Assembly (NCBI GenBank): GCA_965215595.1
Contig: CBDCDW010000005.1
Span: 235,316 to 299,315 of the forward strand
DNA length: 64,000 bases
Direction of reading: 5' to 3'
Source: an uncultured Candidatus Binatia bacterium
GTDB taxonomy: Bacteria > Desulfobacterota > Binatia > UBA9968 > CAXXLF01
This document shows positions 2,641-58,757 of this stretch, piece after piece; positions within the stretch are counted from its first letter, which is position 1, and every line of letters starts with the position of its first letter. A program made the position numbers and the translations under genes. The notes under the pieces were generated by a model that did no database searches, was not told the DNA's origin, and worked only from the letters and a program-made list of their open reading frames with translations.

Positions 2641-2764
2641 CCTCCCCTAGACCCAACTTCCCCTCACTCAATTTTGGAATCCATTTTTGTAACATGTGGA
2701 TTCACCTTGTATTATAAATTCATTTGGAATATTTGTTGATTCTGCCGGTAACAACCAGGTCATT

Positions 2765-3439
2765 ATGGGCAAAAGAATAACCATCACAGGAAAAGACGGA
2801 TTTCATTTTGGCGCCTTTTTGGACGAACCTGACGGCAAACCAAAGGGCGGAGTAGTTGTCTGCCAGGAAATCTTCGGTGTCAATCAATATTTGGAAAACG
2901 TTTGCGACTTTTACACCAAGGCAGGTTACTTGACCATCGCACCAGCGCTCTTTGACCGAATAGAACGCGATCTGGATATAAAATATTCACCAGAAGGCGT
3001 CCAGCGAGGCATACAGATTTCGTCTAAAGTTGACTGGGACCAAGCGCTGGACGACGTAGAGTCGTCACTGGCCACGGTTCGTACGGCGGGAGCTCAAAAG
3101 TTTGGCGCCATCGGATTTTGTTGGGGTGGTACGCTCGCCTGGCTCCTCGCATGCCGCCGTGAAGTTGACTGTGCAGTGGCCTATTACGGCGCGGAGATAG
3201 AGCAATTTCCCAATGAGCATGCCCGTCATCCCGTGATAATGCACATCGGGGAAGAGGACCCTATCATATCGCCAGAGAAACTTGAGAGTATAAAGAAGGC
3301 CCAGGCCGGCACGCCGATTTTCACTTATCCAAAGGCGTCCCACGGTTTTGACAACGAAGCCCGGCCGAAATACGACTCTGCCACGGTAAAGCTCGCTCGC
3401 GAACGCACCCTCGAATTTCTCGCTAAGCACGTACGGTAG
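2765..3439 (+). CDS. Dienelactone hydrolase family protein (carboxymethylenebutenolidase-like)
   Basis: MGKRITITGKDGFHFGAFLDEPDGKPKGGVVVCQEIFGVNQYLENVCDFYTKAGYLTIAPALFDR..., then a GxxG nucleophile elbow region (GFCWGG) and the C-terminal HGFDNE motif. The ORF track starts at 2696, but the internal Met at 2765 gives the canonical DLH length (~225 aa). Confidence 0.75.
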   Translation: MGKRITITGKDGFHFGAFLDEPDGKPKGGVVVCQEIFGVNQYLENVCDFYTKAGYLTIAPALFDRIERDLDIKYSPEGVQRGIQISSKVDWDQALDDVESSLATVRTAGAQKFGAIGFCWGGTLAWLLACRREVDCAVAYYGAEIEQFPNEHARHPVIMHIGEEDPIISPEKLESIKKAQAGTPIFTYPKASHGFDNEARPKYDSATVKLARERTLEFLAKHVR

Positions 3440-3455
3440 GCAAACAACACTCCTC
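3336..3455. repeat. Direct repeat copy 1 (3' end of the DLH gene plus ~15 bp downstream), ~92% identical to 9188-9300
   Basis: cgtcccacggttttgacaacgaagcccggccgaaatacgactctgccacggtaaagctcgctcgcgaacgcaccctcgaatttctcgctaagcacgta... is repeated at 9188 with a few substitutions. The spurious antisense ORFs at 3065..3430 and 8641..9282 share the N-terminus MLSEKFEGAFASELYRGRVVFRPGFVV for the same reason. Confidence 0.85.
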
Positions 3456-9187: not shown

Positions 9188-9300
9188 CGTCCCATGGCAT
9201 TGACAACGAAGCCCGGCCGAAATACGACTCTGCCACGGTAAAGCTCGCTCGCGAACGCACCCTCGAATTTCTCGCTAAGCACGTAGGATAATCAAACAAG
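9188..9300. repeat. Direct repeat copy 2, starting 2 bp after the cyclase stop codon
   Basis: See copy 1. It encodes a gene-less ...HGIDNEARPKYDSATVKLARERTLEFLAKHVG* tail. Confidence 0.85.
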
Positions 9301-9430: not shown

Positions 9431-11446
9431 CTAGTGCGTCCGCTCCCCGACGAAGTCCGCCAACTCACGGAGTACGTGCGCATCGTTACCGAAGGCGATG
9501 ATCGCCTCTTTCGCCTCGTGGATGAGCTGCTTGGTTCGCTCGCGGGAGTTTTCAACGCCGAGGACCGAAGCGAATGTCGCTTTGCGGTGGCGCGCGTCGC
9601 TGCCTTGCGGCTTACCGAGCTGCTCGGTGGAGGAGGTGACGTCGAGGATGTCATCGACGATCTGAAACGCGAGGCCGACACGCTCACCGTAAATCGCTAG
9701 CTGCTCGATCTGCTCGTCCGTTGCACCGCCCGCAATACCACCCGCCACAATAGACGTGCGCAGGAGCGCTGCCGTCTTCATTCGGTGCAAGCGTATGAGG
9801 GCGTCGGTGTCGAGCTGTTGTCCGTCGGAGAGAATGTCGATGACCTGCCCACCTACCATTCCGTGGGCTCCAACGGCAGACGAAATCTCATGAACGAGAC
9901 GAATGGCGCGAGAGGCTCCGATACGCTCTGTGAGCGTCGGATCTGCCAGTAACTCAAAGGCGCGGGTCAGCAACGCATCCCCAACCAAAATCGCCATCGC
10001 TTCGCCATAGACCTTGTGTGTCGTGGGCTTGCCCCGGCGCAAATCGTCGTTGTCCAAGGCCGGCAGGTCGTCGTGCACCAGCGAGTAGGTGTGGATGAGC
10101 TCGACTGCTAGCGCTGGCATTATCGCGTCGCTCGCCGCGGCTCCCACCGACTCCGCAGCCGCCAGTGCCAGGATCGGGCGAAGTCGCTTTCCCCCTGCGA
10201 ACACCGGGTAGCGGACCGCGTCCGCAAGTTGGTCGGGTGTCGACCCATTCGGGAGCGATCCGTCTAGAGCAATTTCAACAAGCTCCCGCCTGGAAGCCAT
10301 ATAGCCGCTCAAAACATCGGCCGACGTCCCAGCCACTAGCGTGCTCCGGGGTTGCGGCGAGATGGTCACGGGTCCTAGGCTCAGGCGGCAGAAACTGGTG
10401 CGCAGTGCTTCGTCGTCCTCCACATGCTCGACGCAATCCTGGATCAGCTTTTCGACCTCTCCATGGGAGATCTTCACCGGCTCGCCGGGGATGAGCTGGG
10501 CGTCGTTTCTCCGGGCATAGGCAAGGGTGCGCACCGCCATCCACAACGGTAAGAGACAGAAAAGGCGTATGTCTCGTTCGTTCGGCGGGATCGCCAAGCA
10601 ATAGGTGAATGCATGCTCGAACCCGCGCTGAGCACGCTTGAATAGCGGCGCCAGCGCCGTGTGAGCGCGCTCTCGCGCCTCGGGTTGCAACAGCTCGGCT
10701 ACCTCCAGGCCAGCATCCTGGCAGACCGTGCGCGGGACATAGCAAACGCCGCGCTCCCAGTCGTTAGTGATATCCTTGAGGATGTTGGTCATCTGCAGGC
10801 CGACGCCAAACTCCTCCGCGTTGGTGCGCAGGGCATGAGTGCGCGGGGCATCGAGATCGCAGGTATCCGTGAATAGGTCGGTGAGCATGTGCGCGACCGT
10901 CCCTGCGACGAAGTAGCAGTACCGTTCGAGATCCGCAAGTGTTGTCAACGCCACGATGCCATCCTCGCCAGTTGGGCGCCGACTGTATATGGCCATCCCG
11001 CGCGCCATCTCGCATACACCCCGTCGTATCGCTCGCTGCGAGGAGTCGTTGAGCTCCGCGAAGACGCCGAGAACGCGCGGCAGGTTTTTCACTAGCCGAC
11101 GCTCCGCGCTCGCCGGTCTTTCACCGTTGTCAGGGAACCGGCTCGCGAAGTCCGAAGCCGAAGCATCCTGCTCCAAACATTCGAGGAAAGATAAATAGAG
11201 GCCGTCCCGCTCTGCCAGTGTGAGGTTTGACTCATCCTCGATCGTATCGGCAATCCGGCATAGCAAGTAGCCGCAGGTGACCGCACGCTCCAGCGGATCG
11301 CGCAACATCGCGATTGGCAAACTGAAGGTCCGCGAGACCTCCTTCAGCGACTGCTGACAGAAACGCCAATCGCTGGAATTCATAGCGCCATCGGTTAGCA
11401 TAACTTTGTCACAGAATGTAACCCGTTTATTCGGTTTGGAAACCAC
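9431..11446 (-). CDS. Bifunctional fusion: squalene/phytoene synthase-like domain (N) + trans-polyprenyl diphosphate synthase (FPP/GGPP synthase) domain (C)
   Basis: N-terminal half: RIADTIEDE and LQMTNILKDITNDWERGVCYVP, the two Asp-rich SQS/PSY motifs, plus YCYFVAGTVAHM. C-terminal half: GKRLRP, the first DDxxD-type motif LVHDDLPALDNDDLRRGKPTTH and the second FQIVDDILD. The gene is high-GC. Confidence 0.75.
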   Translation of the reverse strand: MVSKPNKRVTFCDKVMLTDGAMNSSDWRFCQQSLKEVSRTFSLPIAMLRDPLERAVTCGYLLCRIADTIEDESNLTLAERDGLYLSFLECLEQDASASDFASRFPDNGERPASAERRLVKNLPRVLGVFAELNDSSQRAIRRGVCEMARGMAIYSRRPTGEDGIVALTTLADLERYCYFVAGTVAHMLTDLFTDTCDLDAPRTHALRTNAEEFGVGLQMTNILKDITNDWERGVCYVPRTVCQDAGLEVAELLQPEARERAHTALAPLFKRAQRGFEHAFTYCLAIPPNERDIRLFCLLPLWMAVRTLAYARRNDAQLIPGEPVKISHGEVEKLIQDCVEHVEDDEALRTSFCRLSLGPVTISPQPRSTLVAGTSADVLSGYMASRRELVEIALDGSLPNGSTPDQLADAVRYPVFAGGKRLRPILALAAAESVGAAASDAIMPALAVELIHTYSLVHDDLPALDNDDLRRGKPTTHKVYGEAMAILVGDALLTRAFELLADPTLTERIGASRAIRLVHEISSAVGAHGMVGGQVIDILSDGQQLDTDALIRLHRMKTAALLRTSIVAGGIAGGATDEQIEQLAIYGERVGLAFQIVDDILDVTSSTEQLGKPQGSDARHRKATFASVLGVENSRERTKQLIHEAKEAIIAFGNDAHVLRELADFVGERTH

Positions 11447-12292: not shown

Positions 12293-13338
12293 CTATTTCA
12301 GCCCCAAGACTCGTCTCGCTCTTTCTACCACATCTGGCTTAAGGTCCGTTTTCGTCTTTCGAATAAACCCTTCAAGCCATTCAGCACTCTTGGGTGCGAT
12401 ATCCACCTTCAATCGTTTAGCATCCTTATGAAATGCTGGATCTTTCATAATGTCGGCGAGCCCCTTCCGTAGAATTTTTACCCGATCCTTAGGAGTTCCG
12501 GGAACGGTTGCCCAAGGCCGCACCATTGTGGCAGGCATCGTCAATAATTTTAAAAAAGCTTTATCCTCAGCTTCCCGCACATATTCATTCAGAAACGGCA
12601 CCTTACGCTCGTCTAGCTCAGGATGTCGCTCCTCACGATATATGCCAATAGTTTAATGTCTCCCGCTTCTATCATAGGGAGCCCAGTGGCTTTTACTGAA
12701 TCCCAGGTCCATCCAGTTAATGCATCCACCTCCTTGCGCATTAATGCCGCCCGAATGGGAGCTGTGCCGCCATATCCCGGGACAATCGTGGAAATGGGAC
12801 CAAAAATACTGTTCAAGGCCAATGGAAGAGAACATGTGAGAGTGCCTCTGCTAACACAGCCAAATATTAATTTAGGCGTTTTTGGATTTAGCCATTCTTC
12901 GACACTTTGTGCCGGTGCATCAGCACGAATTGCGACGGTTATAACGCTTGAATTGGCGAGTGCTAGCCACTCGAAATCCAGTGACCGATACTTAACGGCT
13001 GGAATCCCCAGAAATTCCATCTGGGGTATCGTCCATAGTATATGTCCAATGGTTAAGCCATCCGGCTTAGACACATTAAACATATAATTAGCCGCGATCA
13101 GGCCTCCGCCACCCGGCATATTCTCCACGATTACGCTGGGTTTCCCGGGAATATGTTTAGGCAAATGCCGCGCAATTAGCCTGGCATAGGTATCAAAACC
13201 ACCGCCGGGAGAAGCTCCCACGTTGATACGTATAGTTTTGCCTTCATAAAACCCCGCACCGGACACTGGTGTCGAAACTCCTGCAACGTAGGCAAGCCCA
13301 GCGGCAAGATAAATCACGAATAAAAATTTCCTGTTCAT
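12293..13338 (-). pseudogene. TctC-family (Bug) tripartite tricarboxylate transporter substrate-binding protein, disrupted by a frameshift near 12600-12615
   Basis: ORF 12613..13338 (signal peptide; GGFDTYARLIARHL; PGGGGLIAANY) and ORF 12293..12601 (C-terminal Bug-domain region; KDPAFHKDAKRLKVDIAPKS) are consecutive parts of one TctC-like protein in different frames. Confidence 0.55.
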
Positions 13339-13696: not shown

Positions 13697-13735
13697 GTAA
13701 CTAAGAATGGCATTGAGTTTGCGTTCCATATTTTG
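13697..13735 (-). other. Orphan 5' fragment (promoter/5'UTR + first ~10 codons, MERKLNAILS...) homologous to the start of the 1139-aa cyclase-STAND gene
   Basis: The complement reads atggaacgcaaactcaatgccattcttagt (MERKLNAILS), versus atggaacgcaaactcactgccattcttagt at 19249. About 55 bp of upstream sequence are also alignable (catattt-g...tgaaacttaga...). The frame then diverges. Confidence 0.45.
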
Positions 13736-13764
13736 TAATCAATGGGCTTGAAACTTAGAGACCA

Positions 13765-13830
13765 ATATCACAGGGGAAAAGTCTGTCAAGGAGACCAAGA
13801 TGTAATTAAACGACGCTTTAATTGAGCGTT
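13765..13830. repeat. Short dispersed repeat, copy B
   Basis: atatcacaggggaaaagtctgtcaaggagaccaagatgtaattaaacgacgctttaattgagcg versus copy A atcacagagaagacaggtgtcaaggagatcc...aagatgtggttcaatgacgctttagtcg. Confidence 0.5.
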
Positions 13831-13932: not shown

Positions 13933-14859
13933 ATGCGCATCGACGTTCATGCCCACTACTACCCGCCGGAACTAGTTGACGCCTACTCAAGGCTCAAGCG
14001 CATGTCCGGTAACCCGCAGATGGCACCCGCTGGACGTGTGCCCCTGGATGAGCGCCTCGACTTGCTCGCCGAGGCGGGAATCGACCTCCAGATCCTCTGC
14101 TCAGGTGCGAACCAGCCTTACGTCGACAACCGGGAGGAAGCTGTTGCCGTAGCGCGATTTGCGAACGACCTCTACGCCGATGTCTGCAAAGCCCACGGAC
14201 GATTTGCGGCCTTTGCCACGCTCCCGTTGCCGCACGTTGATGCCGCGATTGACGAGATGGGCCGCTGCCTGGACACCCTTGGCATGCTGGGGGTCAACAT
14301 TGGCACCTCAGTGGCAGGCCGTCCACTGGATGATCCCATGTTCGGACCGGTGTTTGCCGAGCTCGAGCGTCGGCGTGCGGTGCTTTTCCTCCATCCCCAA
14401 GGGGCGGGTGCCGGTCCCATGGCCGACGCCTTTGGCATGACCTTCATGATCGGAGCATGCTTCGAGGACACCATCACCTCGATCCGTCTCGTCATGTCGG
14501 GAATCACTGCCCGGTATCCCAACATTCGGATCATCGTGCCGCACCTAGGTGGTACTCTGCCCTTCTTGATGCAGCGAATCGAGGACCACACCCGGCGCAT
14601 GGCCCTCAGCGGACAGCCGCTCCCCGTCGCTAAGCCGATCGAGGCGATCCGGAGTATGTACTTCGACACGGTGAACAACTACCCCGCGGCGCTGCGCTGC
14701 TCCTGCGAGGCATTCGGAGTTGACCACATCATGCTTGGCTCAGACTTCCCTTTTCTCTTTGTGAAACCGTGCGTGGAATACATCGAGCGATCTGGCCTCC
14801 CCGCCGAGGACATCGACACGATCCTAAACCACTCGGCGCAACGACTCCTGAAGCTGTAA
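13933..14859 (+). CDS. Amidohydrolase-2 family protein (ACMSD/2-pyrone-4,6-dicarboxylate hydrolase-like metal-dependent hydrolase)
   Basis: MRIDVHAHYYPPELVD... matches the HxH metal-binding start of the amidohydrolase-2 TIM barrel, followed by internal His and Asp ligands (HPQG, HLGG, GSDFPF). The gene is high-GC. Confidence 0.7.
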   Translation: MRIDVHAHYYPPELVDAYSRLKRMSGNPQMAPAGRVPLDERLDLLAEAGIDLQILCSGANQPYVDNREEAVAVARFANDLYADVCKAHGRFAAFATLPLPHVDAAIDEMGRCLDTLGMLGVNIGTSVAGRPLDDPMFGPVFAELERRRAVLFLHPQGAGAGPMADAFGMTFMIGACFEDTITSIRLVMSGITARYPNIRIIVPHLGGTLPFLMQRIEDHTRRMALSGQPLPVAKPIEAIRSMYFDTVNNYPAALRCSCEAFGVDHIMLGSDFPFLFVKPCVEYIERSGLPAEDIDTILNHSAQRLLKL

Positions 14860-15829: not shown

Positions 15830-18800
15830 TCATGCTGACAGTACGTTTTTATGACGTAGCGCCCGCTCAAGCGCGGGTTTCATCTTCATCTCACGGAACT
15901 CGCTGATGGCGAAGTCCAGGTGCTCTCGCGCCTGAGCTTTTTCCTCTGATGTCCCCTGGAGAAGTAACTCGGCGAGTTGAAGCCGAGTGAGGGCGATCTC
16001 GGGACGATATTGGATGGACGTGGCCCAGGCGAGCGCACGCTCATACTCCGCTTGCGCGTCCTCGCGATCCCCCAGCAGCGCCGCGGCCCCACCAAGCTGC
16101 CGCGCGACATTGAAGACTACGAGGTCGTGTAGCCCGATGGCTACGAGCCCCTGGAGCTGCTCCCTGGCGAACGTTGCGGTTTCTCTGTCGCCGACCACCA
16201 CGGCGACTTCTAAGAGGGTAGCCAGGTGGAAGGTACCTGCCTCCCCCGCTGCCGCCTGCGGTCGCAAATTGGCCAAGCTCCTCTGCGCCCCCATCAAGGC
16301 TTCCGCGCTCCGACCTTGGTGGGCGTCTTTAAGGATTTGCACCACCGCAAATGCCCCTCTTGCGGCTAAAACTCTTTCCCTGATGGGGCTTGCATCCTCG
16401 TGTCCGAGATAAAGCAGCGGCTGGAAACTCAACCATTCAGCCGAAAGCTCTCCAGCTCTCGGGATTCCCAGCTCGATCGCCTGGCTTTTGAGCCGTGCAG
16501 CGACCTCGACGCTACTTTCTAGTTCCCCGCTCAGGGTGGCTCGAACCGCTTCGAGCTGGAGCGGCCAGAGTAGAGCAACCACGTCACGAGTATGATTGGC
16601 CAGCTCGCTCAGCTCCCGCCAGACCTGCTCTGTTCGAGCTCGGTCCCCGGCTGCTAAGAATAGCGTCTGAGCCCGCTGCAACACCAGAGCCAGCGTGGTC
16701 GTTCGAACCCGGTGACGGGGCCGGTCGGTGATCTCGTATGCCATGTGCCGCTGCTCCTGCTGATACTGCGGAGGCCAACCCATAAACATCATCGAGGCGG
16801 CCGCCCGGAAAAGCACCTCCGGATCGTCGAGCCGCCGCGCCAGCTCCAGAGCCCGGAGTACCAGTGCATTTGCAACGCCGTGCTTCCCTCGAGGACGGCG
16901 CACTGACGCTAAGATACAGTCGGCGTAAACGCGGGAGCGTGAGTTGGGTGCCGCGTACCGGTCCAAGCTCTCTGCCCAGTTCAGATAGATATCTGTTAAG
17001 ACCATGTAGGGCCCACCGTGACGGTGGAGCGCATCGACCGCCAGCTCGCAAGCCCGGCTAGCCCGAATGTCGTCGCCGAGGAATTCAGCCAGCCGTAGCG
17101 CCTCCGTGGCAACCTGTTCAGCTGCCCTTTGGGGCTCGCCGGCAGGACCAATGGCCTCCCCTAGCGCCAGCAAGAGGTCGCAACGCTTCGCCTTGTTATC
17201 CGGGTCGAGGACTTCCTGAGTGCGGAGTGCTTGCTCAAGGCGTCGCGCCGCCTCGCCATAGGCAAAGACCTGCATGGCTTGTTTCGCCGCCATCTCCGAG
17301 TAACTCAGAGCCTTTTCCAAGTCGCCGCGCTCCGTGCTCTGGATGAAATGCTCCGTCAGCTCCGCCGCGTGCTCGTCCAATCGCTGACTATAGACCTCCT
17401 CCAGGGTCTTGCCCACTTGTTGATGGAGGCGAATCCGCCGTGGGACAAAGATCTCTTCGTAGAGAGTTTGGCGAAAAAACGCATGGGTGAAACGAAATCC
17501 CACCGTCCCCACAGCCTGGCGTTGCTCGATCACAGCTCGCCCAGTCGCCTCCTCCAATGCCCCGTACAGCTCCTCTTCCGGCAAACCGGCCACTTGTTCG
17601 AGAACGTCCAGGCGGAACTCCCGCCCGATGACCGCCGCAACAGACAGAATCTGGTTGGCCTTCTCGGTGAGTCGACTCAGGCGCTTGCCGACCACATCTC
17701 GCAGACCCTCGGGAATCCCCGCTTCCGAGTCGGCGAGCAAGTACCGCCCGCTCTCACGGACGACAATCCCTTCCTCCACCAGGTAGCGTAGCACCTCATG
17801 GACGAACAAAGGATTGCCCTCCGTCTGGCGGTGGATCGCCTCTGCCCCACTCCAGGGCACGTCCTGCCCACGGACGATGGACATCATCCGCTGCACTTCC
17901 TCAACCGTGAGGCCGCGCGGTGATACGCGCAGGAAGCTCCCCGCCCGCCGCAACTCGGCGAGGGCACTGGACAGCGGATGGGCGCGATCTACCTCGACGT
18001 CTCGGTAGGTGCCAACGATGAGCAGATGGGTCCCCTGGAGATTGTGGGAGATGTGGAGGAGGAGGTCGAGGGTGCCACGGTCGGCATCGTGCAAATCCTC
18101 GAGAACAACCAGCAACGGTTGAACCATCGACGCATTGCGTAGGAATTCACTCACAGCTTGCAAAAGTCGCCAGCGGTCGTCCTCAGGATCGCCCGGCGGT
18201 CGCACTTCGACCCGCAAACGGTCTTGGATCTCCGAGACTAGCCGCGCCACGTCGGCGGCCCCGCTGCCCAGATCCCGGCGCAGGTCATCTGACTCTTGCG
18301 TGAGGACGTACGAACGCATTGCCTCCACGAAGGGCAGATAGGGCAAAGATAGTGAGCCTTCCTCATAGCAGTGTCCAACGAGAGCCATGCCACCCCGTTG
18401 CGTGACGTAGGTGACGAGCTGCTCGCAGAGCGAAGTCTTGCCGATGCCAGGTTCGCCGACGACCATCGCCAGCGATCCCTGATAGGACAGGGTAGCATCA
18501 AAGGCCCCCTGGAGCTGACGTAGTTCCCGCTCGCGCCCGACGAACGTACGGCCGTAGAGCGAGTCGTTCACGCCTAACCTTGCGGTCTCCTTCCCCGCGA
18601 CGGAGAGCGGAGTCGGCTCAACAGTACCGGCATTGAGCTTCTCTTCCGGTAGCGTGACTTTTTCCGGCAGCTCCACTGTTGGCGGCTGCCGCCTTGGAAC
18701 TTCGACTTTCTTCTGTGGCTTGGCCAATGCCGTCCCCTGATCCAAAACCGCCCGATAGGCACGAATTGGCTCCGCAATGTTCTTGACCTGCTGCGGGCCA

Positions 18801-19249
18801 AGGTCCTCAAAGTTAACAGATACCTTTCCCTTGATATGCTCAAATACCGTCCCCGATATGCATATGCCACCAGGTTCCGCTAATCCCTCCATCCGTGCTG
18901 CGATGTTCACCCCATCACCGTAAATCCGCTCCCCTTCCACGATCACATCACCAAGGTTAATCCCTATACGAAACTCCATGCTGCGGTTCTCTGGCAAATT
19001 GGCGTTCTCTGCCCTGAGCGTAGATTGGACTACGGCGGCACATTTCACCGCATCTACCACGCTGCCAAACTCCGCCAACAGGTTATCTCCAGGGGAGTCC
19101 ACTACTCTGCCCCGATTGCGCGGGATGAGAAACGTCATCACTTGTCGGTGAGAGGTCAATGTGCGAATGGTCGCCTCCTCATCCTCCCCCATTAGTCGAC
19201 TGTAACCTTCGACATCCGCACTAAGAATGGCAGTGAGTTTGCGTTCCAT
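15830..19249 (-). CDS. Large tripartite signalling protein: N-terminal class III nucleotidyl cyclase domain - central P-loop NTPase (AAA/NB-ARC-like, GEPGIGKTSL) - C-terminal TPR-like helical repeats; no HTH
   Basis: N-terminus MERKLTAILSADVEGYSRLMGEDEEATI...SPGDNLLAEF...FRIGINLGDVIVEGERIYGDGVNIAARM is paralogous to the cyclase at 8170. Walker A VGEPGIGKTSLCEQL and a Walker B-like LLVVLEDLHDAD follow. About 600 aa of Ala/Leu-rich repeats make up the C-terminal half. The gene is high-GC. Confidence 0.8.
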   Translation of the reverse strand: MERKLTAILSADVEGYSRLMGEDEEATIRTLTSHRQVMTFLIPRNRGRVVDSPGDNLLAEFGSVVDAVKCAAVVQSTLRAENANLPENRSMEFRIGINLGDVIVEGERIYGDGVNIAARMEGLAEPGGICISGTVFEHIKGKVSVNFEDLGPQQVKNIAEPIRAYRAVLDQGTALAKPQKKVEVPRRQPPTVELPEKVTLPEEKLNAGTVEPTPLSVAGKETARLGVNDSLYGRTFVGRERELRQLQGAFDATLSYQGSLAMVVGEPGIGKTSLCEQLVTYVTQRGGMALVGHCYEEGSLSLPYLPFVEAMRSYVLTQESDDLRRDLGSGAADVARLVSEIQDRLRVEVRPPGDPEDDRWRLLQAVSEFLRNASMVQPLLVVLEDLHDADRGTLDLLLHISHNLQGTHLLIVGTYRDVEVDRAHPLSSALAELRRAGSFLRVSPRGLTVEEVQRMMSIVRGQDVPWSGAEAIHRQTEGNPLFVHEVLRYLVEEGIVVRESGRYLLADSEAGIPEGLRDVVGKRLSRLTEKANQILSVAAVIGREFRLDVLEQVAGLPEEELYGALEEATGRAVIEQRQAVGTVGFRFTHAFFRQTLYEEIFVPRRIRLHQQVGKTLEEVYSQRLDEHAAELTEHFIQSTERGDLEKALSYSEMAAKQAMQVFAYGEAARRLEQALRTQEVLDPDNKAKRCDLLLALGEAIGPAGEPQRAAEQVATEALRLAEFLGDDIRASRACELAVDALHRHGGPYMVLTDIYLNWAESLDRYAAPNSRSRVYADCILASVRRPRGKHGVANALVLRALELARRLDDPEVLFRAAASMMFMGWPPQYQQEQRHMAYEITDRPRHRVRTTTLALVLQRAQTLFLAAGDRARTEQVWRELSELANHTRDVVALLWPLQLEAVRATLSGELESSVEVAARLKSQAIELGIPRAGELSAEWLSFQPLLYLGHEDASPIRERVLAARGAFAVVQILKDAHQGRSAEALMGAQRSLANLRPQAAAGEAGTFHLATLLEVAVVVGDRETATFAREQLQGLVAIGLHDLVVFNVARQLGGAAALLGDREDAQAEYERALAWATSIQYRPEIALTRLQLAELLLQGTSEEKAQAREHLDFAISEFREMKMKPALERALRHKNVLSA

Positions 19250-19555
19250 ATTTGGGACTCAATCGGACTGAAACTAAGAAAACAAAATTACGGAGAAACA
19301 GGATTTCTCAACGCAAAAAGTAAGTCAGTTTTTCCGTTAAGTAGAAATGATGATATGATTTGTCTTTTCAGCATAGCTTTATCCTCCTCTATATTTGTTG
19401 ATCAGCGGAGATCTAAACGCTAGTTATTTATCCTTTGCCCGCTCTCCCAAAGCGTCGTTGATCACTCAAACGTATGGCTTAAGCTCCCTGCCATCCGGGT
19501 CAAATTTTTAAGCTGGCTATTCTGCAACCGATATCCAGCACTTGTCAAGGTTCGG

Positions 19556-19810
19556 ATGGAGCCGCCGCTGCTTGCGCGCACAGTAGCCTGCTACTTTTGG
19601 TCCAGAGACTATCGGTGTACCTTGGCGGGAGATCCTATTCCACCTTAAGATACAATTCAACGCCGCTTTAATTGAGTCTTACGGCCGTTGGAAAAGAAAA
19701 GGCGGCCCGATATGGACCGCCTTTTCTTTAGGGAGTAAGGATTGTGTCTGGATGGCTTTAGCTTACAAGATTACTGATGTTCTTTTGTTCGGCAACAACT
19801 CCAATGCCCG
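19556..19810. repeat. Tandem duplication, first copy of the ~250-bp overlap (unit length 947 bp; second partial unit at 20503-20750)
   Basis: ggagccgccgctgcttgcgcgcaca...ggcggcccgatatggaccgccttttcttta...atggctttagcttacaagattactgatgt is repeated 947 bp downstream with ~95% identity. It includes the start of the transposase ORF. Confidence 0.85.
19625..19690. repeat. Short dispersed repeat, copy C (again at 20572-20637 inside the tandem duplication)
   Basis: gggagatcctattccaccttaagatacaattcaacgccgctttaattgagtcttac shares the aagat...ttNaacgNcgctttaattgag core. Confidence 0.45.
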
Positions 19811-20507
19811 GGATCTGGATAAAGAGGTTAAGTTTTACCATAGACGTCCCCTGCAGTACCGCTATCAGTTCTTTGATGGGGTGGTGTTAAAGAGCAAGGG
19901 GGTTACAGAAAAAGATATTACTTTGTGCCTTCGGGATCCTGATGGGAAGGGGATCGATTTCTATGCGGCCCCAACTGAATCTGAAGCCTGCTCGTTGTTA
20001 AGGGACCTGTATCTAGAGGGGGGGTGTTGTGAGCTGATTGTGACCGATGGGGGAACGGGGCTGCATGGAGCCTTACAGATTGTCTATCCTAAGATCCTCG
20101 CCCAACGCTGCTGGGCCCATAAGACAAGAAACGTGTTGGACAAGGTAAAAAGGGCCGATCAACCAGCGGTCAAAAAAGCTCTAAATCGTATCAGTCATGC
20201 CCCTAATTATAGAAAAGCTACGGAAGCTTACTGGCGGTTTGGTTCACGCTGGAGGAAGGCTTATCCAAGGGCTGTGGCCTGTTTGGAAAAGGATCTCGAT
20301 CAAACTTCTTTCAGATCAAGCGGCCTGAAGCCGCTTGGAACCACCAACCTCATAGAAAGATCGTTCCGGGAAGTCAGGCGCAGGACTCGCCCTATGGGGG
20401 TGATGGCAAATACCCAAAGCATACAAAGAATCGTTTTTTCTGTCTTTCATCACTTGAACCAAAATTGGAGTGAGAATGCCCCTAAGAAATTTACACACAA
20501 GTCTTGA
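19752..20507 (+). CDS. IS256 (Mutator)-family transposase, C-terminal ~250 aa only (N-terminal ~120-150 aa missing)
   Basis: QRCWAHKTRNVLDKVKRADQPAVKKAL is the IS256-family C-terminal signature. FFDGVVLKSKG and LIVTDGGTGL match the DDE-region blocks of IS256 transposases. The ORF is too short for an intact enzyme. Confidence 0.6.
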   Translation: MALAYKITDVLLFGNNSNARDLDKEVKFYHRRPLQYRYQFFDGVVLKSKGVTEKDITLCLRDPDGKGIDFYAAPTESEACSLLRDLYLEGGCCELIVTDGGTGLHGALQIVYPKILAQRCWAHKTRNVLDKVKRADQPAVKKALNRISHAPNYRKATEAYWRFGSRWRKAYPRAVACLEKDLDQTSFRSSGLKPLGTTNLIERSFREVRRRTRPMGVMANTQSIQRIVFSVFHHLNQNWSENAPKKFTHKS

Positions 20508-20750
20508 CGATGGAGCCGCCGCTGCTTGCGCGCACATAGCCTGCTACTTTTGGTCCAGAGACTATCGGGTACCTTGGCGGGAGATCCTATTCCACCTTAA
20601 GATACAATTCAACGCCGCTTTAATTGAGTCTTACGGCCGTTGGAAAAGAAAAGGCGGCCCGATATGGACCGCCTTTTCTTTAAGTAAGGATTGTGTCTAT
20701 GGCTTTAGCTTACAAGATTACTGATGTCTTTTGTTGCAACAACTAATCCG
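20503..20750. repeat. Tandem duplication, second (partial) unit; truncated where the IS3 element begins
   Basis: See 19556-19810. Confidence 0.85.
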
Positions 20751-20806
20751 TGCCTGGACTGACCCCCTGCAGTTGGACAGTTTGAGGGAGCAGGTTAGAA
20801 TGCCTG

Positions 20807-21223
20807 ATGGGAAGGGGAAAGGATCTCATCATGGCAGAGAGAAGAAGGTTTACAGCGAATTTCAAGCGGCAGGTAGTGGAGGAACTCCTCAGTGAGAGCT
20901 CCACGTTGGCCCAACTGAGCCGCCGCTACGACATCTCCTCAGGCTCCACGTTGGCCCAACTGAGCCGCCGCTACGACATCTCCTCAGGACTTATTCGACA
21001 TTGGACGAAGCGCTACGAACAAGGGGGCCTGGTGGAGGGCCCCTCTCTGCCAGAGAAGGAACTTCGAGCGCGCAATGCGGAGTTGGAGCGGATGGTGGGC
21101 AGACTCACCATGGAGAATGATCTTTTAAAAAAAGCCGTAGAGTACACACTGCGGCGGAGAAAAGAGAATTCGTCACCCATCACGGCCAAGAGTTTGGCAG
21201 CATCCATAGGGGGTGTGAAGTGA
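20807..21223 (+). CDS. IS3-family transposase OrfA (HTH + leucine zipper)
   Basis: See the element entry. It contains a 45-bp in-frame tandem duplication (SSTLAQLSRRYDISSG twice). Confidence 0.7.
   Translation: MGRGKDLIMAERRRFTANFKRQVVEELLSESSTLAQLSRRYDISSGSTLAQLSRRYDISSGLIRHWTKRYEQGGLVEGPSLPEKELRARNAELERMVGRLTMENDLLKKAVEYTLRRRKENSSPITAKSLAASIGGVK
20899..20988. repeat. Perfect 45-bp tandem duplication inside IS3 orfA
   Basis: ctccacgttggcccaactgagccgccgctacgacatctcctcagg occurs twice, back to back. Confidence 0.85.
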
Positions 21224-22038
21224 TGGGGATAGCGCGCAGCACTTTTTATTACCGAACCCGGGAGCCTTCTATGCTCCACGAGATTGAGGAGGCGGACTTA
21301 CGGGACCGGATTGAGCAGGTAGTGGAGGAGTATCTGCGTTACGGCTACCGGCGAGTCACCCATCATCTGAGGCGCGAGGGCTTTAAGGTTAATCACAAGC
21401 GGGTGTCGAGAATCATGCGGGAGGAATCATTGCAATGCCAGGTCAAGCGGCACTGGGTGAAGACCACTGACAGTGATCATCCCTACCGGGTCTATCCGAA
21501 CCTCCTTAAGGGACTAAGGGCCACAAGACCTAACCAGGCATGGGTGGCCGATATCACCTACATCCGGATCCTCACGGGGTTTTTGTACTTGGCGGTGATC
21601 TTGGATCTGTTCTCACGTAAGGTTATTGGGTGGGCGCTTTCTAAATCGATCGATACCGAGATGACTTTAATGGCTCTGCGGATGGCTTTAGTGGAGAGAA
21701 GGCCGCCCTGGGGTTGTATCCATCATTCAGATCGCGGAGTGCAGTACGCCGCCCATGCTTATGTGGAGGAGTTGCGGGCAGCGGGGATCTTAATCAGCAT
21801 GGCCCGCAAGGGCAATCCCTATGACAATGCGACAGCGGAGAGCTTCATGAAGACGCTCAAGCATGAAGAAGTCTACCTGTGGGAGTACAGGACGGCGCAG
21901 GATGTGAAGCAAAGGGTTCCTTATTTTCTGGAGGAAGTCTATAACCAGAAGCGGTTGCACTCGGCTTTGGGGTACTGTCCACCGAATGAGTTTGAGCAGG
22001 CCTGGCAGATGAAAGCCGAGGTGGTGTGTGAGGCCTGA
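21220..22038 (+). CDS. IS3-family transposase OrfB (DDE integrase core)
   Basis: rve-domain motifs: WVADITYI, HSDRGVQY, NPYDNATAESFMKTLKHE. Confidence 0.75.
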   Translation: MMGIARSTFYYRTREPSMLHEIEEADLRDRIEQVVEEYLRYGYRRVTHHLRREGFKVNHKRVSRIMREESLQCQVKRHWVKTTDSDHPYRVYPNLLKGLRATRPNQAWVADITYIRILTGFLYLAVILDLFSRKVIGWALSKSIDTEMTLMALRMALVERRPPWGCIHHSDRGVQYAAHAYVEELRAAGILISMARKGNPYDNATAESFMKTLKHEEVYLWEYRTAQDVKQRVPYFLEEVYNQKRLHSALGYCPPNEFEQAWQMKAEVVCEA

Positions 22039-22326
22039 AGGGGGGGGGTACTGAGATATCTACCCGGTGTGAGATCGTCGTTTCTAGGGCAATTGTGAAA
22101 GCCGTTTTGACCGGCCACCAAGACAAGAGGCATAGGGAAGGGCATAGATCACAGAACTCACAATGTGGACTCTTGCAAACAGGAAGGGAACAGCATAATT
22201 AATTCAACCACCCTGGAGGGCATTCTAATTTCAGCCCAGTGACTGTCCAACCAATGGGGTTCACTCCATTGATCGTGTTTGGGACCATGAGATGTACTTC
22301 TGCTGCATACTTCCAGTAGATCGATC

Positions 22327-23346
22327 TCACTTGATCACCCGATCCGCCCGCGCAAGAAACTGGGGCGAGAAGGTAAGGCCGATCTTCTTGGCTGTCTTTA
22401 GATTGATCACTAGATTGAACTTGGTGGGTTGCTCGATGGGAAGATCTGCCGGCTTCGCGCCCCTGAGTATTTTGTCTACGTAAGTGGCTACTCTGCGGTA
22501 CAAGTCAGGACGGTTCGTCCCGTAGGACATTAGCCCACCAGCCTTCACATTTCGACTCCGAGTGTATATCGTAGGCAGCCGTTTCTTGGTTGTGAACTCA
22601 ATGAACCGAGCTCGATGACGTATCATGAGACCGGCTGTTGTAACTAAAAGTCCATCAAGGCCCTCTCGCCTGATTGTAGAGAAGGCGCTCTCCAGCTCGT
22701 CCAAACGTGTTCCGACATCCAGCAATTGGACCTGGATGCCCAAAGATCGTCCCACAGCTTCGGTTTCTTTTACCCAAGGTTCCGGTTGGGTTCTATGCCT
22801 ATGCCAGAGGATTGCCACACGGGAGGTTCGCGGGAACGCCTCCTTGAGTAGCTCCAGCCTTTTTGGGTGTAACTTCGTAGAAAGGTTAGTCATCCCCGTA
22901 ATGTTGCCACCTGGCCTAGCGAGGCTGACAACAAATCCAGCCTTAACAGGATCAGCACTGACGCCTGCCATGACGATGGGGATTGTACTGGTTGAGTGTT
23001 ACGCAGCACGGATCGCTGGCCGCGCTGACGAGGTGACAATGACATCCACCTTTCGCCGTACAAATTCGGCAGCTATGTGGGGGAGCCGTTCGCGCTTACC
23101 TTCTGCCCAACGGTACTGAAGAACAAGGTTCTGTCCTTCAACATACCCGAGCTCTCGCAGCCGTTGCCGGAAGGCAATGAATTGTGGCGAGGGTTTCAAT
23201 TTGTTCTTACGCTGGCTTCCAGGTCCACCTATACCTAGCCATCCTACCCGATAGACCTTTTCCGCCTGCTGCGCCTCGACTAGGGAAACAGTAAGCAGAA
23301 GGACAATAAGCAGTAGGCAGAAAAAGACGAAGATTCTTCTGATCAT
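22327..23346 (-). pseudogene. PF04392-type ABC-transporter-associated substrate-binding protein, paralogue 1, interrupted by an in-frame TAA (complement of 22999-23001)
   Basis: ORF 22999..23346 (signal peptide; KVYRVGWLGIG...VDVIVTSSARPAIRAA*) and ORF 22327..22971 (HSTSTIPIVM-AGVSADPVKAGFVVSLARPGGNITG...) are in the same frame. The TAA sits where the paralogues have K/E (AAKRATSTIPIVM; AKEATSTIPIVM). Confidence 0.55.
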
Positions 23347-23398
23347 GCGCCTTCCTCCCGGTCTTTTCTGACCTCTGATTTCTGATCTCTGACCTCTA

Positions 23399-24421
23399 TC
23401 ATCTTATGACCTTGTCCGCCCGGTACAGAATGGACGGTGGTATCGTAAGGCCAAGTTGCATCGCCGTCTTGAGGTTGATGATCAAGTCGAACTTTGTGGG
23501 TCGTTCCACAGGCAACTCTGCGGGCTTAGCACCTTTCAGGATCTTGTCTACGTATGTGGCGGCGCGCCAAGTTGCATCGCCGTCCAGGTTGTTGATCAAG
23601 TCGAACTTTGTGGGTCGTTCCACAGGCAACTCCGGGCTTAGCACCTTTAGGATCTTGTCTACGTAAGCGGCCGCCGTCCATGCTGAAGTTCGTACATAAT
23701 CTATTGGCTTGTTGTATATCACCGGGAGCCGGCTTTTTACCGCGAGTTCTGCAACCTGTGTTCGGTTAGAATTGTAGTTGGGGTTCGGCACCAGCCAGAG
23801 TGCTGCCTCCGCATACCTCTTGCTTGCCTCACGGAATGCTGGCTCTATATCCATGGGACCTTGCACGTCGAGGAATTGAAGCTTTAGCCCCAACGCCCCT
23901 GCGGCGAGTTTGATCTCTTTTCTCATACTCGCGCTCGTCCGGCTGGTTGAAGACCAGAAGGCGGCCACGCGGGAGAGCCTGGGAACGATCTCCTTCAGAA
24001 GCTCCAATTGTTTTGTGCTTAGCTCCGGGGCAAGTCTGGACAGTCCCGTAATGTTCCCGCCAGGCCGTGCAAGGCTGGCGACGTGTCCGTTTCCAACAGG
24101 GTCGCGATCCTGGGTCATCACAATGGGAATCGTAGAAGTTGCTTCCTTGGCATGACGGGTCGCTCCCCCGCCCCCTGTGACGATGACGTCTACCTTGAGA
24201 CGCACTAACTCGGCCGCGACCACGCGGTAGTGACTGCGTTTCGCCTTACGACCGCGTTTTACCCTGCCAGATCGCAACTCAATGACAATGTTTTTTCCCT
24301 CGACGTAGCCGAGGTCGCGCATAGCTTGGCGGAATGCCTCGATGCGGTGCGGGATACGGGCAACGTTACTGCTTAAGTACACTATCCTGGGGACTTTCCC
24401 AGTCTGCTGAGCCATAGCCAC
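23399..24421 (-). CDS. PF04392-type substrate-binding protein, paralogue 2 (internal ~117-bp tandem duplication; N-terminal signal peptide encoded in a different frame upstream)
   Basis: ASLARPGGNITG, TIPIVMTQDRDPV. The C-terminus has the duplicated block YVDKILK..PELPVERPTKFDLI.NL twice. Upstream of 24421 the hydrophobic h-region (WTGIVAFVVTFTLCGAVAMAQQ) is in-frame, but the positively charged n-region (MENTMRNKSLSENNLK...) lies in another frame, implying a frameshift around the A-runs at ~24465-24490. Confidence 0.5.
   Translation of the reverse strand: MAMAQQTGKVPRIVYLSSNVARIPHRIEAFRQAMRDLGYVEGKNIVIELRSGRVKRGRKAKRSHYRVVAAELVRLKVDVIVTGGGGATRHAKEATSTIPIVMTQDRDPVGNGHVASLARPGGNITGLSRLAPELSTKQLELLKEIVPRLSRVAAFWSSTSRTSASMRKEIKLAAGALGLKLQFLDVQGPMDIEPAFREASKRYAEAALWLVPNPNYNSNRTQVAELAVKSRLPVIYNKPIDYVRTSAWTAAAYVDKILKVLSPELPVERPTKFDLINNLDGDATWRAATYVDKILKGAKPAELPVERPTKFDLIINLKTAMQLGLTIPPSILYRADKVIR
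23451..23684. repeat. ~117-bp in-frame tandem duplication within paralogue 2
   Basis: ccaagttgcatcgccgtc..gttgatcaagtcgaactttgtgggtcgttccacaggcaactc...cttagcacctttcaggatcttgtctacgta appears twice in succession (23451 and 23566). Confidence 0.7.
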
Positions 24422-24586
24422 AGCCCCACACAGTGTGAATGTAACAACGAAGGCGACAATCCCCGTCCATTTTGGTCCGCGGGGCCGCTTTTTGATTTTA
24501 GATTATTCTCGGACAGAGACTTGTTGCGCATTGTGTTCTCCATTTTTCTTCTCCTTAATCAAAAATCCAAAATCGCCAATCCAAAA

Positions 24587-25678
24587 TCATTTTATGACCT
24601 TTGTCGCTTGCAGGAGAAGGGACGGTGGGATCGTCACACCGAGAGCCTTCGCTGTCTTGAGATTTATCCTGAGTTCGAATTTCTTTGGCCGCTCTATGGG
24701 AAGGTTCCATGGATTCGCGCCCTTGAGGATCTTGGCTACGTGGGTAGCAGCCTGGCGGTATAAATCTAGGATGTCTGTGCCGTAGGACATGAGTCCACCT
24801 GCATTCACAAATCGGATTCGATCGTAGATCGCCGGTAACTGCCTCTCCCTCGCAAATTTTATGATCCGTGCTCGATTTGCTACGCTCGCACCCCCGGCTG
24901 CAGTAACCGATAGCCCTTCCGCTTTCCGGCTAATTTCGGATAAGGTTGTCTCAATGTCATTACGGTGAACAATCACGGATTGGACCTGCATACCCAAAGC
25001 CTTTCCTTCGGCTTTGATTTCTTCTTCCCAACGTTCCTTTTGGTCCTCACTCAAGAGCATGGTCACACGGGAAATGTGGGGGAACACCTCTTTGAGTAGT
25101 TCTAGTCGCTTTCCATATAACTCTGCTCTTAGGTCAGCTATCCCTGTCATATTGCCGCCGGGCCTTGCGAGGCTGACAACATAACCAGCCTCAACTGGAT
25201 CAACTCGACTCCCTGACATAACAATAGGGATCGTGCTGGTTGCCCGCTTCGCAGCGCGAGTCGGATTCCTACCCGGCGAGGTGAGAATGACATCAACCTT
25301 GAGCCGAACCAGCTCAGCCGCAACCTCCTGGAGCCGTTCCTTGTCACCTTTTCCGTTACGGTACTCGATAACGTAGTTTTGTCCGTGAACAAACCCGAGC
25401 TCCCGCATTCCTTGCTTGAAAGAAGCGAGTTGGCCAATCTGTGCTTTAGTCCAGCGGTAGGACAGATAACCTATGCGGTAGACTTTCTTTGGCTGCTGCG
25501 CCTGAATTTGGGAGACAGTTAGCAGAAGGACAGCAAGCAGTAGGCAGAAAGAAACAAAGATACTTCTGGTCACCCGTTTTTCTCCCTTCTTTTGCTGCTG
25601 TTTGCATTCTGCTCGCTCCCAACCGTTCTGATTGGTTACCATCGAATCCTCCTTGTCATCTAATCGCCTGCCGGTCAT
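24587..25678 (-). CDS. PF04392-type substrate-binding protein, paralogue 3 (apparently intact)
   Basis: Signal/TM SIFVSFCLLLAVLLLTVSQIQAQQ, then KVYRIGYLS...TIPIVMSGSRVDPVEAGYVVSLARPGGNMTG...NLPIERPKKFELRINLKTAKALGVTIPPSLLLQATKVIK. Confidence 0.65.
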   Translation of the reverse strand: MTGRRLDDKEDSMVTNQNGWERAECKQQQKKGEKRVTRSIFVSFCLLLAVLLLTVSQIQAQQPKKVYRIGYLSYRWTKAQIGQLASFKQGMRELGFVHGQNYVIEYRNGKGDKERLQEVAAELVRLKVDVILTSPGRNPTRAAKRATSTIPIVMSGSRVDPVEAGYVVSLARPGGNMTGIADLRAELYGKRLELLKEVFPHISRVTMLLSEDQKERWEEEIKAEGKALGMQVQSVIVHRNDIETTLSEISRKAEGLSVTAAGGASVANRARIIKFARERQLPAIYDRIRFVNAGGLMSYGTDILDLYRQAATHVAKILKGANPWNLPIERPKKFELRINLKTAKALGVTIPPSLLLQATKVIK

Positions 25679-31108: not shown

Positions 31109-31411
31109 TTGAATCTTGGCATAAGCCTTTCATGGCCGACTCAATTGAAGGAGCAATGAGCGTGCCGATCCAACACGACTACCCGGACTTAAGCCAGGTG
31201 CTGAATTGGTGAGGGAAATTTTTAGCAGATAAATTTAACGGAGCTTGCCGGGAAAGGCGTAAGTGTAGCTTCCTTGCTACACCCCTGTAACAAAAATGCT
31301 CCAGCAGAATTCGGAATCTTTAGGCCCTATTTCCACACCAGATGCTATTAATCGAGAATTAATTGCATCTCATGCACGACTCAAAGTACTGAGTGCCGTG
31401 AACACTCTGGG

Positions 31412-34920: not shown

Positions 34921-34973
34921 GATAGACCTGACCCCACCCTAGAGGGAGGTGGGATCGGCATGAAATGATAGGA

Positions 34974-58740: not shown

Positions 58741-58757
58741 TATGAAGGGAGTTAATC

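Follow-up and report, generated by a model that had tools for sequence, protein, structure and literature searches.

Fusions of farnesyl diphosphate synthase (FPPS) with squalene synthase (SQS), of the ERG20-ERG9 type, are used in metabolic engineering. In fungal prenyltransferase-terpene synthases, an N-terminal terpene-forming domain is joined by a flexible linker to a C-terminal trans-prenyltransferase, and oligomers of the prenyltransferase reportedly bring the second active sites together. The general strategy of fusing enzymes is treated in a preprint (bioRxiv 10.1101/2022.11.08.515726), and a natural single polypeptide of isopentenyl diphosphate isomerase (IDI) and SQS, PtIDISQS, is known from a diatom (PMC12168105). 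For bacteria, the squalene synthase Sqs ("SQS pathway"), which is encoded for example in sterol clusters of myxobacteria and other bacteria, is set apart from the HpnCDE enzymes (PMC8237579, PMC7306690), and these two surveys of the evolution of bacterial squalene and sterol pathways do not mention fusions of SQS with FPPS; nor did the searchable literature yield any account of a naturally occurring FPPS-SQS fusion in bacteria. Here we analysed a 64,000-nucleotide stretch of DNA (hereafter the window) from an uncultured Candidatus Binatia bacterium (GenBank assembly GCA_965215595.1, contig CBDCDW010000005.1, positions 235,316 to 299,315), in which a single gene at 9431-11446 on the minus strand joins an SQS domain to an FPPS domain. 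Its product is probably a soluble bifunctional enzyme, in which an IspA-type FPPS and a one-enzyme SQS of the Sqs/Erg9 type would form a self-contained squalene module.

The gene was found as an uninterrupted open reading frame (ORF) in the ORF listing of the window, with a GTG start at 11446, a TAG stop at 9431-9433 and a product of 671 aa, to which the residue numbers below refer. The ATG at 11399-11401, which gives a coding sequence of 656 aa (9431-11401), is more likely to be the true start, because it is the start used for most orthologues and because disorder is predicted for residues 1-22, with a predicted local distance difference test score (pLDDT) of about 30; the gene call on a near-identical contig (L001) also takes the 656-aa start. 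Neither start codon has an obvious Shine-Dalgarno sequence, and promoter/terminator, Rfam and tRNA scans gave nothing informative beside the gene. Two Pfam domains were identified in the single chain, SQS_PSY (PF00494) at aa 34-327 (10466-11347; E 2.8e-47, 162 bits against a gathering cut-off of 26) and polyprenyl_synt (PF00348) at aa 406-644 (9515-10231; E 1e-58). The initial annotation had described a single-polypeptide fusion with both pairs of aspartate-rich motifs intact, and all four peptides that it quoted were recovered, namely RIADTIEDE (aa 64-72), LQMTNILKDITNDWERG (aa 217-233), LVHDDLPALDNDDLRRGKP (aa 456-474) and FQIVDDILD (aa 594-602); the second SQS motif can be given more exactly as DITND.

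L001, a contig of 6.17 Mb from an independent assembly (ENA ERZ28763718 ctg125648), matches the window at 99.85% identity over 19.8 kb, and its fusion ORF has the same length and is 99.8% identical, with no frameshift or stop separating the two halves. The same collinear architecture, PF00494 followed by PF00348 on one chain with a short variable linker, was taken to define an SQS-FPPS fusion family (P0001-P0008 and P0144), whose members were found at 41-100% identity in assemblies from NCBI, ENA, JGI and Logan; P0001 is 100% identical to the window protein over 656 aa. The catalytic residues of both halves are invariant among the eight fusion clusters aligned. In comparisons with orthologues in two other genomes, the ratio of non-synonymous to synonymous substitution (dN/dS) was 0.14-0.19 in the SQS half and 0.13-0.15 in the FPPS half but 0.36-0.69 in the linker, as is typical of two domains under selection that are connected by a tether. 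A recent pseudogene, or an artefact of assembly or sequencing in which an indel error joined adjacent genes, might be suspected from the 17 mismatches and 9 indels that separate the window from L001 over the 19.8 kb, one of the indels shifting the frame of a neighbouring TctC gene. Such an origin is effectively refuted: dozens of sequences that independent projects produced share the architecture, at identities down to 41%, the linker keeps its length, and the independent recurrence, together with purifying selection on both halves, a dN/dS pattern specific to the linker and two confidently modelled domains, excludes an artefactual join.

The N-terminal half carries an SQS domain of the Sqs/Erg9 type at aa 24-357 (10376-11377), as delimited by PF00494, TIGR01559, matches in the Protein Data Bank (PDB) and an AlphaFold2 (AF2) model, in which it is all-alpha with pLDDT mostly of 85-95. 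Squalene synthase (TIGR01559) was its best NCBIfam match (129.2 bits), followed by HpnD (69 bits), CrtB (51 bits; CrtB models 43-51) and HpnC (39 bits); the equivalog cut-offs of TIGR03464 (250 bits), TIGR03465 (279 bits) and NF042419 (480 bits) were all missed, at 39, 69 and 51 bits, respectively. There was no separate model for bacterial Sqs among the NCBIfam matches of this half. Squalene synthases in the PDB (7wgh, E 6e-28; human; Trypanosoma) align to aa 24-341, the human enzyme with an E-value of 2e-19 over aa 24-339, whereas CrtM, CrtB and HpnC structures align to the central ~120 residues only (aa ~168-288). The first aspartate-rich motif of the SQS domain, DTIED at aa 67-71 (11234-11248), aligns with DTLED of human SQS, and the second, DITND at aa 225-229 (10760-10774), is preceded by LQMTN with Q218 and N221. 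Residues D67, E70, D71, Q218, N221 and D229 are invariant across the fusion family. Its conserved SQS motifs are SRTF, DTIED, YCYFVAGTV, LQxTNILKD, FCLLPLWMA and KIS, with the human counterparts SRSF, DTLED, YCHYVAGLVG, LQKTNIIRD-YLED, the Phe288 region and the JK loop, respectively. In human SQS the SRSF motif, the Tyr171 region, Gln212/Asn215, the Phe288 region and the JK loop are the residues tied to the two half-reactions. Eukaryotic SQS has a C-terminal transmembrane anchor, where the fusion protein has the FPPS domain instead; no hydrophobic segment or transmembrane anchor was detected in the fusion protein (maximum 19-aa Kyte-Doolittle value 1.52). From these alignments, the N-terminal half is classed as a squalene synthase of the type shared by eukaryotes and bacterial Sqs, and not as CrtB, CrtM or HpnC/D.

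The C-terminal half is a farnesyl diphosphate synthase domain of the IspA type at aa 379-671 (9434-10312), according to PF00348, NF045485 and PDB matches. It passes the NCBIfam FPPS model NF045485 (355.1 bits against 275) at aa 385-671, over the whole 288-position model, and does not reach the E. coli-type equivalog PRK10581 (238.7 against 321). The first aspartate-rich motif of the prenyltransferase (FARM) is DDLPALD at aa 459-465 (10052-10072), of the DDxxxxD type, and the second (SARM) is DDILD at aa 598-602 (9641-9655), with D598, D599 and D602; both DDILD and the segment DDLPALD...RRG (aa 459-472) are invariant in the fusion family. The residues upstream of the FARM that determine chain length, whose inspection had been proposed, are of the FPPS type, with Tyr454 at position -5 (10085-10087) and Ser455 at -4 (Tyr454 to the end of the FARM, 10052-10087). 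An aromatic residue at -5 reportedly stops elongation beyond C15, as judged from mutagenesis of Y81 in Geobacillus FPPS. Tyr-Ser at -5/-4 (IHTYSLVHDD) was found in 9/9 SQS-FPPS fusions and in 69/84 stand-alone relatives. A PDB search with the FARM segment returned FPPSs with IHTYSLIHDD as top matches (Geobacillus 5AYP, 3UCA, S. aureus 1RTR and 3P8L), while a CrtE geranylgeranyl diphosphate (GGPP) synthase, 6SXN, carries IHTMSLIHDD. This comparison with PDB sequences was made empirically because a review of prenyltransferases (PMC7839719) gives no chain-length rule for position -5. The product of the C-terminal half should be farnesyl diphosphate (FPP, C15). The idea that a fused enzyme would make its own prenyl diphosphate and condense it head-to-head to squalene, dehydrosqualene or phytoene gains support here and, since FPP is the substrate of SQS, narrows to squalene, with a predicted reaction from isopentenyl diphosphate (IPP) and dimethylallyl diphosphate (DMAPP) via FPP to squalene.

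Between the two domains lies a linker at aa 358-374 (10325-10375) with pLDDT below 50, set in a wider variable region of about aa 351-377; the linker is thus ~17-27 residues long, and its length is conserved in the fusion family. The AF2 model, built from an alignment of eight sequences (mean pLDDT 79.6), has two confident all-alpha domains separated by the disordered linker, and its predicted template modelling score (pTM) of 0.53 means that no fixed inter-domain geometry or interface is predicted. Foldseek searches against the PDB gave only single-domain matches (<=306 aligned columns, query TM-score <=0.40), with no solved chain spanning both domains.

An exhaustive HMMER search of 1.84 billion proteins, each of them a 50%-identity representative, returned 47,869 hits at E <= 1e-3. 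Both domains are present in 8 of the best 150 of these 47,869 representatives: three have the order SQS-FPPS (P0001, P0006, P0144), three the reverse order FPPS-SQS (P0182, P0202, P0264), and two combine HMG-CoA reductase (HMGR), FPPS and SQS (P0213, P0257). The last two, of 1162 aa and 1453 aa, respectively, place three non-consecutive steps from mevalonate to squalene on one chain. In the same SQS clade, many fusions of squalene epoxidase (SE), with or without a cyclase, to SQS were found (Myxococcota), as well as an SQS-SQS tandem of 703 aa (P0189). One hit matching in two stretches (P0224, 61%) was considered as a further fused lineage and rejected, being an FPPS fragment with an internal duplication.

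For the two halves, separate identities were calculated and neighbour-joining trees were built with 200 bootstraps. The fusions that include the window protein and P0001-P0005 (lineage A) are monophyletic in 200/200 replicates; the nearest unfused relatives of their SQS half are P0143 and P0009 (58-59% identity; sister group in 92/200), and lineage B is 50% identical. For lineage B (P0006/7, 'Deltaproteobacteria HGW-14', GC 0.73-0.75), the closest neighbour is an unfused SQS, P0145. Lineage C (P0008, P0144) has an SQS half 35% identical to that of lineage A and groups with the reverse-order fusions in 200/200 replicates. The prenyl synthase of the reverse-order fusions is 25-30% identical, with A/T at -5/-4 and a short DDxxD FARM. 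Of the separate phylogenies suggested by the initial annotation, that of FPPS is poorly resolved, with bootstraps below 25% above the terminal groups, so that independent origins are argued mainly from the SQS tree, domain order and FPPS type, and lineages A and B could represent one event or two. We infer at least three independent fusion events, in lineage A (with or without B), in lineage C and in the reverse-order group. Such fusions are rare, as had been supposed, yet recurrent, with at least three probable origins and both domain orders.

A possible precursor state is seen in the closest unfused relative of the window SQS half, P0143 (59-60% identity), which lies on a 1.9-kb ENA contig (L097, GC 0.66). 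A spacer of 8 nt separates the TGA stop of this gene from the ATG of a downstream polyprenyl synthase gene (PF00348, E 1.6e-28), whose product is 58% identical to aa 377-515 of the window protein and 62% to P0003, and whose best-scoring matches in the sequence set are the lineage-A fusions. Its start, MEDFLTGYL, aligns exactly at the end of the window linker (ADVLSGYM), and its frame, read back from the ATG, stays open over at least 30 codons. The distance from DD(A/E)xxR to D(F/V)L(T/S)GY is 26.67 codon-equivalents in L097 and 27 codons in the window, so the length of the window linker matches that of the SQS tail plus the 8-nt spacer. Given the open frame and the matching spacer, one frameshift, of +1 or -2, within the tail of the SQS gene would give this fusion and its linker. 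The fusion most likely arose in this way, from an adjacent sqs-ispA pair whose stop codon was lost by a 1-nt frameshift; the L097 pair is a relative of the window fusion, not its ancestor.

Within the 64-kb window, no other isoprenoid, hopanoid or sterol gene was found. The immediate neighbours of the fusion gene are an adenylate cyclase, a two-component/sigma-54 system, TctC, an amidohydrolase and insertion sequence (IS) elements. The TctC (Bug-family) gene at 12293-13338 (minus strand) is split in the window by a frameshift into ORFs of 241 aa and 102 aa in different frames and is intact on L001 (348 aa), the split being either an assembly indel error or a strain-level pseudogenisation. Lineage-A fusions occur in four unrelated contexts: that of the window and L001; a contig on which the gene stands beside LigAB (L093); two contigs on which it lies between meta-cleavage genes and glpX (L082, L094); and the genome of P0005 (L091, 4255-11971), where it stands directly downstream of an operon-like set of four genes on the same strand with gaps of 0-171 nt (MPAB_Lcp_cat, MMPL/sterol-sensing RND, DUF1329 and DUF1302). 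The MPAB_Lcp_cat oxygenase family includes isoprenoid-cleaving enzymes, and the four-gene set, which is absent from the other three contexts, may be an export or processing system for a squalene-derived lipid.

Other fusions have sterol-type neighbourhoods. In P0008, the fusion gene is followed by FMN_dh (type-2 IDI-like), HMGR and SE, and in P0144 by FMN_dh, HMGR and SE/oxidosqualene cyclase (OSC); the reverse-order fusion P0182 follows SE, OSC and a hypothetical gene. The nearest unfused SQS genes, P0009 and P0014, belong to SQS-HMGR-SE/OSC and SQS-SE/OSC clusters, respectively. These neighbourhoods give independent support to an FPPS and SQS pair that feeds squalene-consuming enzymes. In the host of the window, candidate end products are hopanoids, sterols, C30 carotenoids and squalene itself. 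Among named relatives, 'Candidatus Binatia bacterium' is the commonest label both for the NtrC-type regulator of the window (72-74% identity) and for the homoserine dehydrogenase of the sister genome (58-60%), beside generic 'Deltaproteobacteria bacterium' labels, so the host is probably an uncultured member of the Binatia/Binatota. Many oxygenases are encoded in the window (Rieske, HpaB, luciferase-like, extradiol dioxygenase, desaturase), in keeping with an aerobic way of life.

Several observations weigh against the reading of the gene as a complete squalene module. The N-terminal half does not reach the TIGR01559 equivalog cut-off of 286.75 bits, and at three motif positions the species of the window departs from SQS residues that are otherwise invariant in the clade: KISR is changed to KISH in the JK loop (R328H; aa 325-328, 10463-10474), a change specific to this species; the fourth residue of Dxx[D/E]D is changed in DITND, with both canonical Asp kept; and AGTVG is changed to AGTVA in the clade alignment (aa 176-185, 10892-10921). 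These substitutions might alter the handling of Mg2+ or NADPH. The C-terminal half is 47% identical to Se-CrtE and 38% to E. coli IspA. No squalene-using gene is present in the window or in any of the four lineage-A contexts, and, with no confident inter-domain geometry from AF2, channelling of FPP between the domains is a proximity argument only.

The three substitutions and the score below the SQS cut-off are what would be expected if the head-to-head half were altered or non-reductive and released presqualene diphosphate, hydroxysqualene or dehydrosqualene, perhaps for C30 carotenoids; a squalene/C30 route to carotenoids exists in bacteria (PMC9907078). We consider this unlikely. The half is of the SQS type over its whole length and keeps SRTF and the F288-region motif, CrtM and HpnD match weakly, and the consensus DITDD is present in P0122, which belongs to the same 90% cluster; in sister clusters, the second motif is altered in a complementary way, to NIT[D/E]D. 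There is also no sign of relaxed selection: because dN/dS is equally low in the SQS and FPPS halves, the substitutions are treated as a caveat and not as evidence of inactivation.

The greater overall similarity of the C-terminal half to CrtE than to IspA means that the C15 assignment is carried mainly by the -5 tyrosine and the NCBIfam score, and it raises the alternative of a CrtE-CrtB type fusion, in which a GGPP synthase and a phytoene synthase would produce C40 phytoene for carotenoid synthesis. The best full-length PDB matches of this half, labelled FPPS/GGPP synthase, are by their entry titles cyanobacterial CrtE, with plant CrtE-type GGPP synthases also among the closest; 7MY6 and 7MY7, labelled 'FPPS', are CrtE, and 7MY6 and 7MXZ have Met at -5 (HTMSLIHDD). 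The half also scores 336 bits with the CrtE model NF045685, and Binatota are reported as pigment producers (PMC8262859). That score is below the equivalog cut-off of 460 bits, however, while the FPPS model is passed, and residue -5 is Tyr and not the Met of CrtE. The N-terminal half scores 129 bits with the SQS model against 43-51 with CrtB models and aligns with SQS end-to-end, including the F288 and JK-loop regions, and the related fusions adjoin squalene epoxidase or oxidosqualene cyclase, not phytoene desaturases. A phytoene-forming enzyme is accordingly regarded as very improbable.

The low pTM and the lack of a predicted interface would also suit a protein in which one half alone matters, either an FPPS serving as the sole housekeeping IspA, whose FPP would go to quinones and bactoprenol, with SQS as a minor side-activity, or one domain acting as scaffold or regulator. 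Catalytic residues that are invariant in both halves across the eight clusters and similar dN/dS values in both speak for two working enzymes, as do the dedicated sqs-ispA pair that resembles an unfused precursor and the dedicated pathway operons in which other fusion lineages are embedded; a single functional half has, in our judgement, little probability.

For the bifunctional squalene-forming enzyme, we propose that the C-terminal domain would build FPP from DMAPP and two IPP, and that the N-terminal domain would join two FPP head-to-head to presqualene diphosphate, which it would then rearrange and reduce with NAD(P)H to squalene (C30). Trans-prenyltransferases are homodimers. With both domains tethered by the flexible linker of ~17-27 residues, an FPPS dimer would set two SQS domains beside two FPP-producing sites, and this proximity would commit FPP to squalene.

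The initial annotation had placed the gene in a high-GC island and suggested a horizontal origin. The gene is indeed richer in GC than its flanks, with GC 0.609 and GC at third codon positions (GC3) 0.720, against 0.520+-0.042 and 0.564+-0.081, respectively, for 43 ORFs of the window; the values of its two halves are similar (0.60/0.72 and 0.62/0.72), and the GC step coincides with the gene ends. The raised GC is gene-sized within a mosaic and does not form one island. A contiguous GC island was rejected because GC-rich genes alternate with GC-poor ones. Against a lateral origin, genes with a similarly high GC lie at 13933-14859, 15830-19249 and 28076-28621. The first encodes an Amidohydro_2 protein (GC 0.611, GC3 0.741) and the second a 1139-aa AAA_16/guanylate-cyclase protein (GC 0.606, GC3 0.679). 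An 80-bp sequence occurs at 13700-13779, upstream of the Amidohydro_2 gene, and, 82.5% identical, at 19220-19298, across the 5' end of the 15830-19249 ORF and its upstream DNA.

Several observations support a lateral origin. The GC of lineage-A genes is 0.59-0.61, against 0.51 in the flanks in the window, 0.53 in L082 and 0.58 in L091, and the nearest relatives outside the lineage lie in DNA of GC 0.66-0.75. The four contexts are not syntenic. In two sister genomes, the fusion genes share 78% identity at a synonymous divergence (dS) of about 0.8, while the homoserine dehydrogenases are only 61% identical, a single housekeeping comparison in which codon bias can also depress dS; for the NtrC-type regulator of the window, no orthologue from the sister genomes was present among hits of at least 69% identity. 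In addition, IS elements and a duplicated gene fragment abut the locus. This 112-bp fragment, at 9188-9299 on the plus strand, lies in the convergent gap that separates the adenylate cyclase gene from the 3' end of the fusion gene; it is 93.8% identical to 3336-3447, at the 3' end of a dienelactone-hydrolase gene (2696-3439, ending '...EFLAKHVG*'). The two direct copies bracket a 5.7-kb two-component/cyclase segment, and the fragment is a scar left by a rearrangement, at the border of the GC-rich segment. The suggested horizontal origin is strengthened by the GC of the orthologues, the four contexts and the unsaturated dS, and is plausible, though not proven.

More tentatively, the fusion may be a laterally mobile one-gene squalene module, welded at least three times, in both orders and with two FPPS types, that formed by a single-nucleotide frameshift in an sqs-ispA operon, escaped from a sterol operon and acts as a dimeric scaffold committing FPP. 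If so, the Binatia-type fusion would give any recipient with IPP and DMAPP a supply of squalene, with FPP reserved for squalene instead of also supplying the synthesis of quinones and bactoprenol.

Elsewhere in the window, two 796-bp direct repeats (26350-27145 and 28697-29492; 99.7% identical) each contain an ORF-less group II intron, which is complete and lies on the minus strand (Rfam group-II-D1D4-6, 91.7 bits; Intron_gpII domain V/VI, 47.9 bits), and flank the GC-rich CMD-family gene at 28076-28621. Two inverted 1653-bp IS copies (29466-31118 and 33279-34931; 99.5% identical), each with a 487-aa DDE_Tnp_1_6/DUF772 transposase, flank about 2.2 kb that includes an IS200-like Y1 transposase fragment (31882-32592) and may form a composite transposon. 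An IS3-family element (HTH_Tnp_1, HTH_21, rve) at 19555-22040 contains a 246-bp direct repeat (19555-19800 and 20509-20744), and the window and L001 differ structurally at this element, where the BLAST alignment breaks at ~19800-20943. The region 49927-60206 looks like an aromatic-acid (de)carboxylation locus, with four UbiD-family decarboxylase paralogues (51258-52667, 53897-55609, 57298-58740 and 58758-60206), a thiamine-pyrophosphate enzyme present as two ORFs (49927-50523 and 50520-51035), a solute-binding protein and a GFO/IDH/MocA oxidoreductase. At 22327-25678 on the minus strand, three ABC_sub_bind (PF04392) paralogues stand in tandem in a region with internal ~110-bp repeats, the first paralogue (22327-22971) being truncated at its N-terminus.

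Both domains belong to well-known families and no new chemistry is expected. Automatic annotation already recognises the fusion, under JGI names such as 'geranylgeranyl pyrophosphate synthase/phytoene/squalene synthetase', and the Binatota genome paper (PMC8262859) does not mention squalene, hopanoids, sterols or phytoene; the fusion points to squalene-derived lipids in an uncultured Binatia lineage. Together with the HMGR-FPPS-SQS, FPPS-SQS and SE-OSC-SQS proteins, it marks the sterol-linked bacterial Sqs clade as a hotspot of pathway-compacting fusions, which bears on the assembly and transfer of such pathways and, with it, on the debate over what bacteria contributed to sterol synthesis in eukaryotes.

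Compared with bacterial Sqs, the N-terminal half is an enzyme of the same type, with the same motifs and an end-to-end alignment, and it is most closely related (50-60% identity) to SQS genes or domains from clusters of the sterol type; unlike those, it is joined at its C-terminus to an FPPS and stands away from any epoxidase or cyclase within the contexts examined. With the bacterial type-II FPPS IspA (Geobacillus 5AYP, S. aureus 1RTR, E. coli 1RQI), the C-terminal half shares the fold, the DDxxxxD/DDxxD motifs and IHTYSLxHDD, but it is overall slightly closer to CrtE-type enzymes than to E. coli IspA and carries a 378-residue N-terminal extension that is a second enzyme. The FPPS-SQS, HMGR-FPPS-SQS, SE(-OSC)-SQS and SQS-SQS proteins share the same SQS family and the same fusing of consecutive squalene or sterol steps; the reverse-order fusions use a different prenyl synthase and lie inside sterol operons, whereas the lineage of the window is solitary. 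The domain order of the fungal chimeras is that of the window fusion. The logic is also the same (PaFS; TvTS and MpMS in PMC9177416), but the N-terminal partner of the fungal enzymes is a class I cyclase that acts on one prenyl diphosphate, not a head-to-head condensing reductase, and there is no sequence relationship beyond the isoprenoid-synthase fold. Like the window fusion, the diatom PtIDISQS links a squalene synthase to an upstream enzyme of isoprenoid supply on one chain; its partner is IPP isomerase, it is eukaryotic, and its FPP comes from a separate enzyme, whereas the partner in the window fusion is the FPP synthase. Engineered FPPS-SQS fusions combine the same two activities to pull FPP into squalene and are man-made, while the window fusion is natural, selected and equipped with its own linker. 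It would thus be nature's version of a design so far built by hand, and its selected linker and domain order should be directly useful and easy to test in E. coli.

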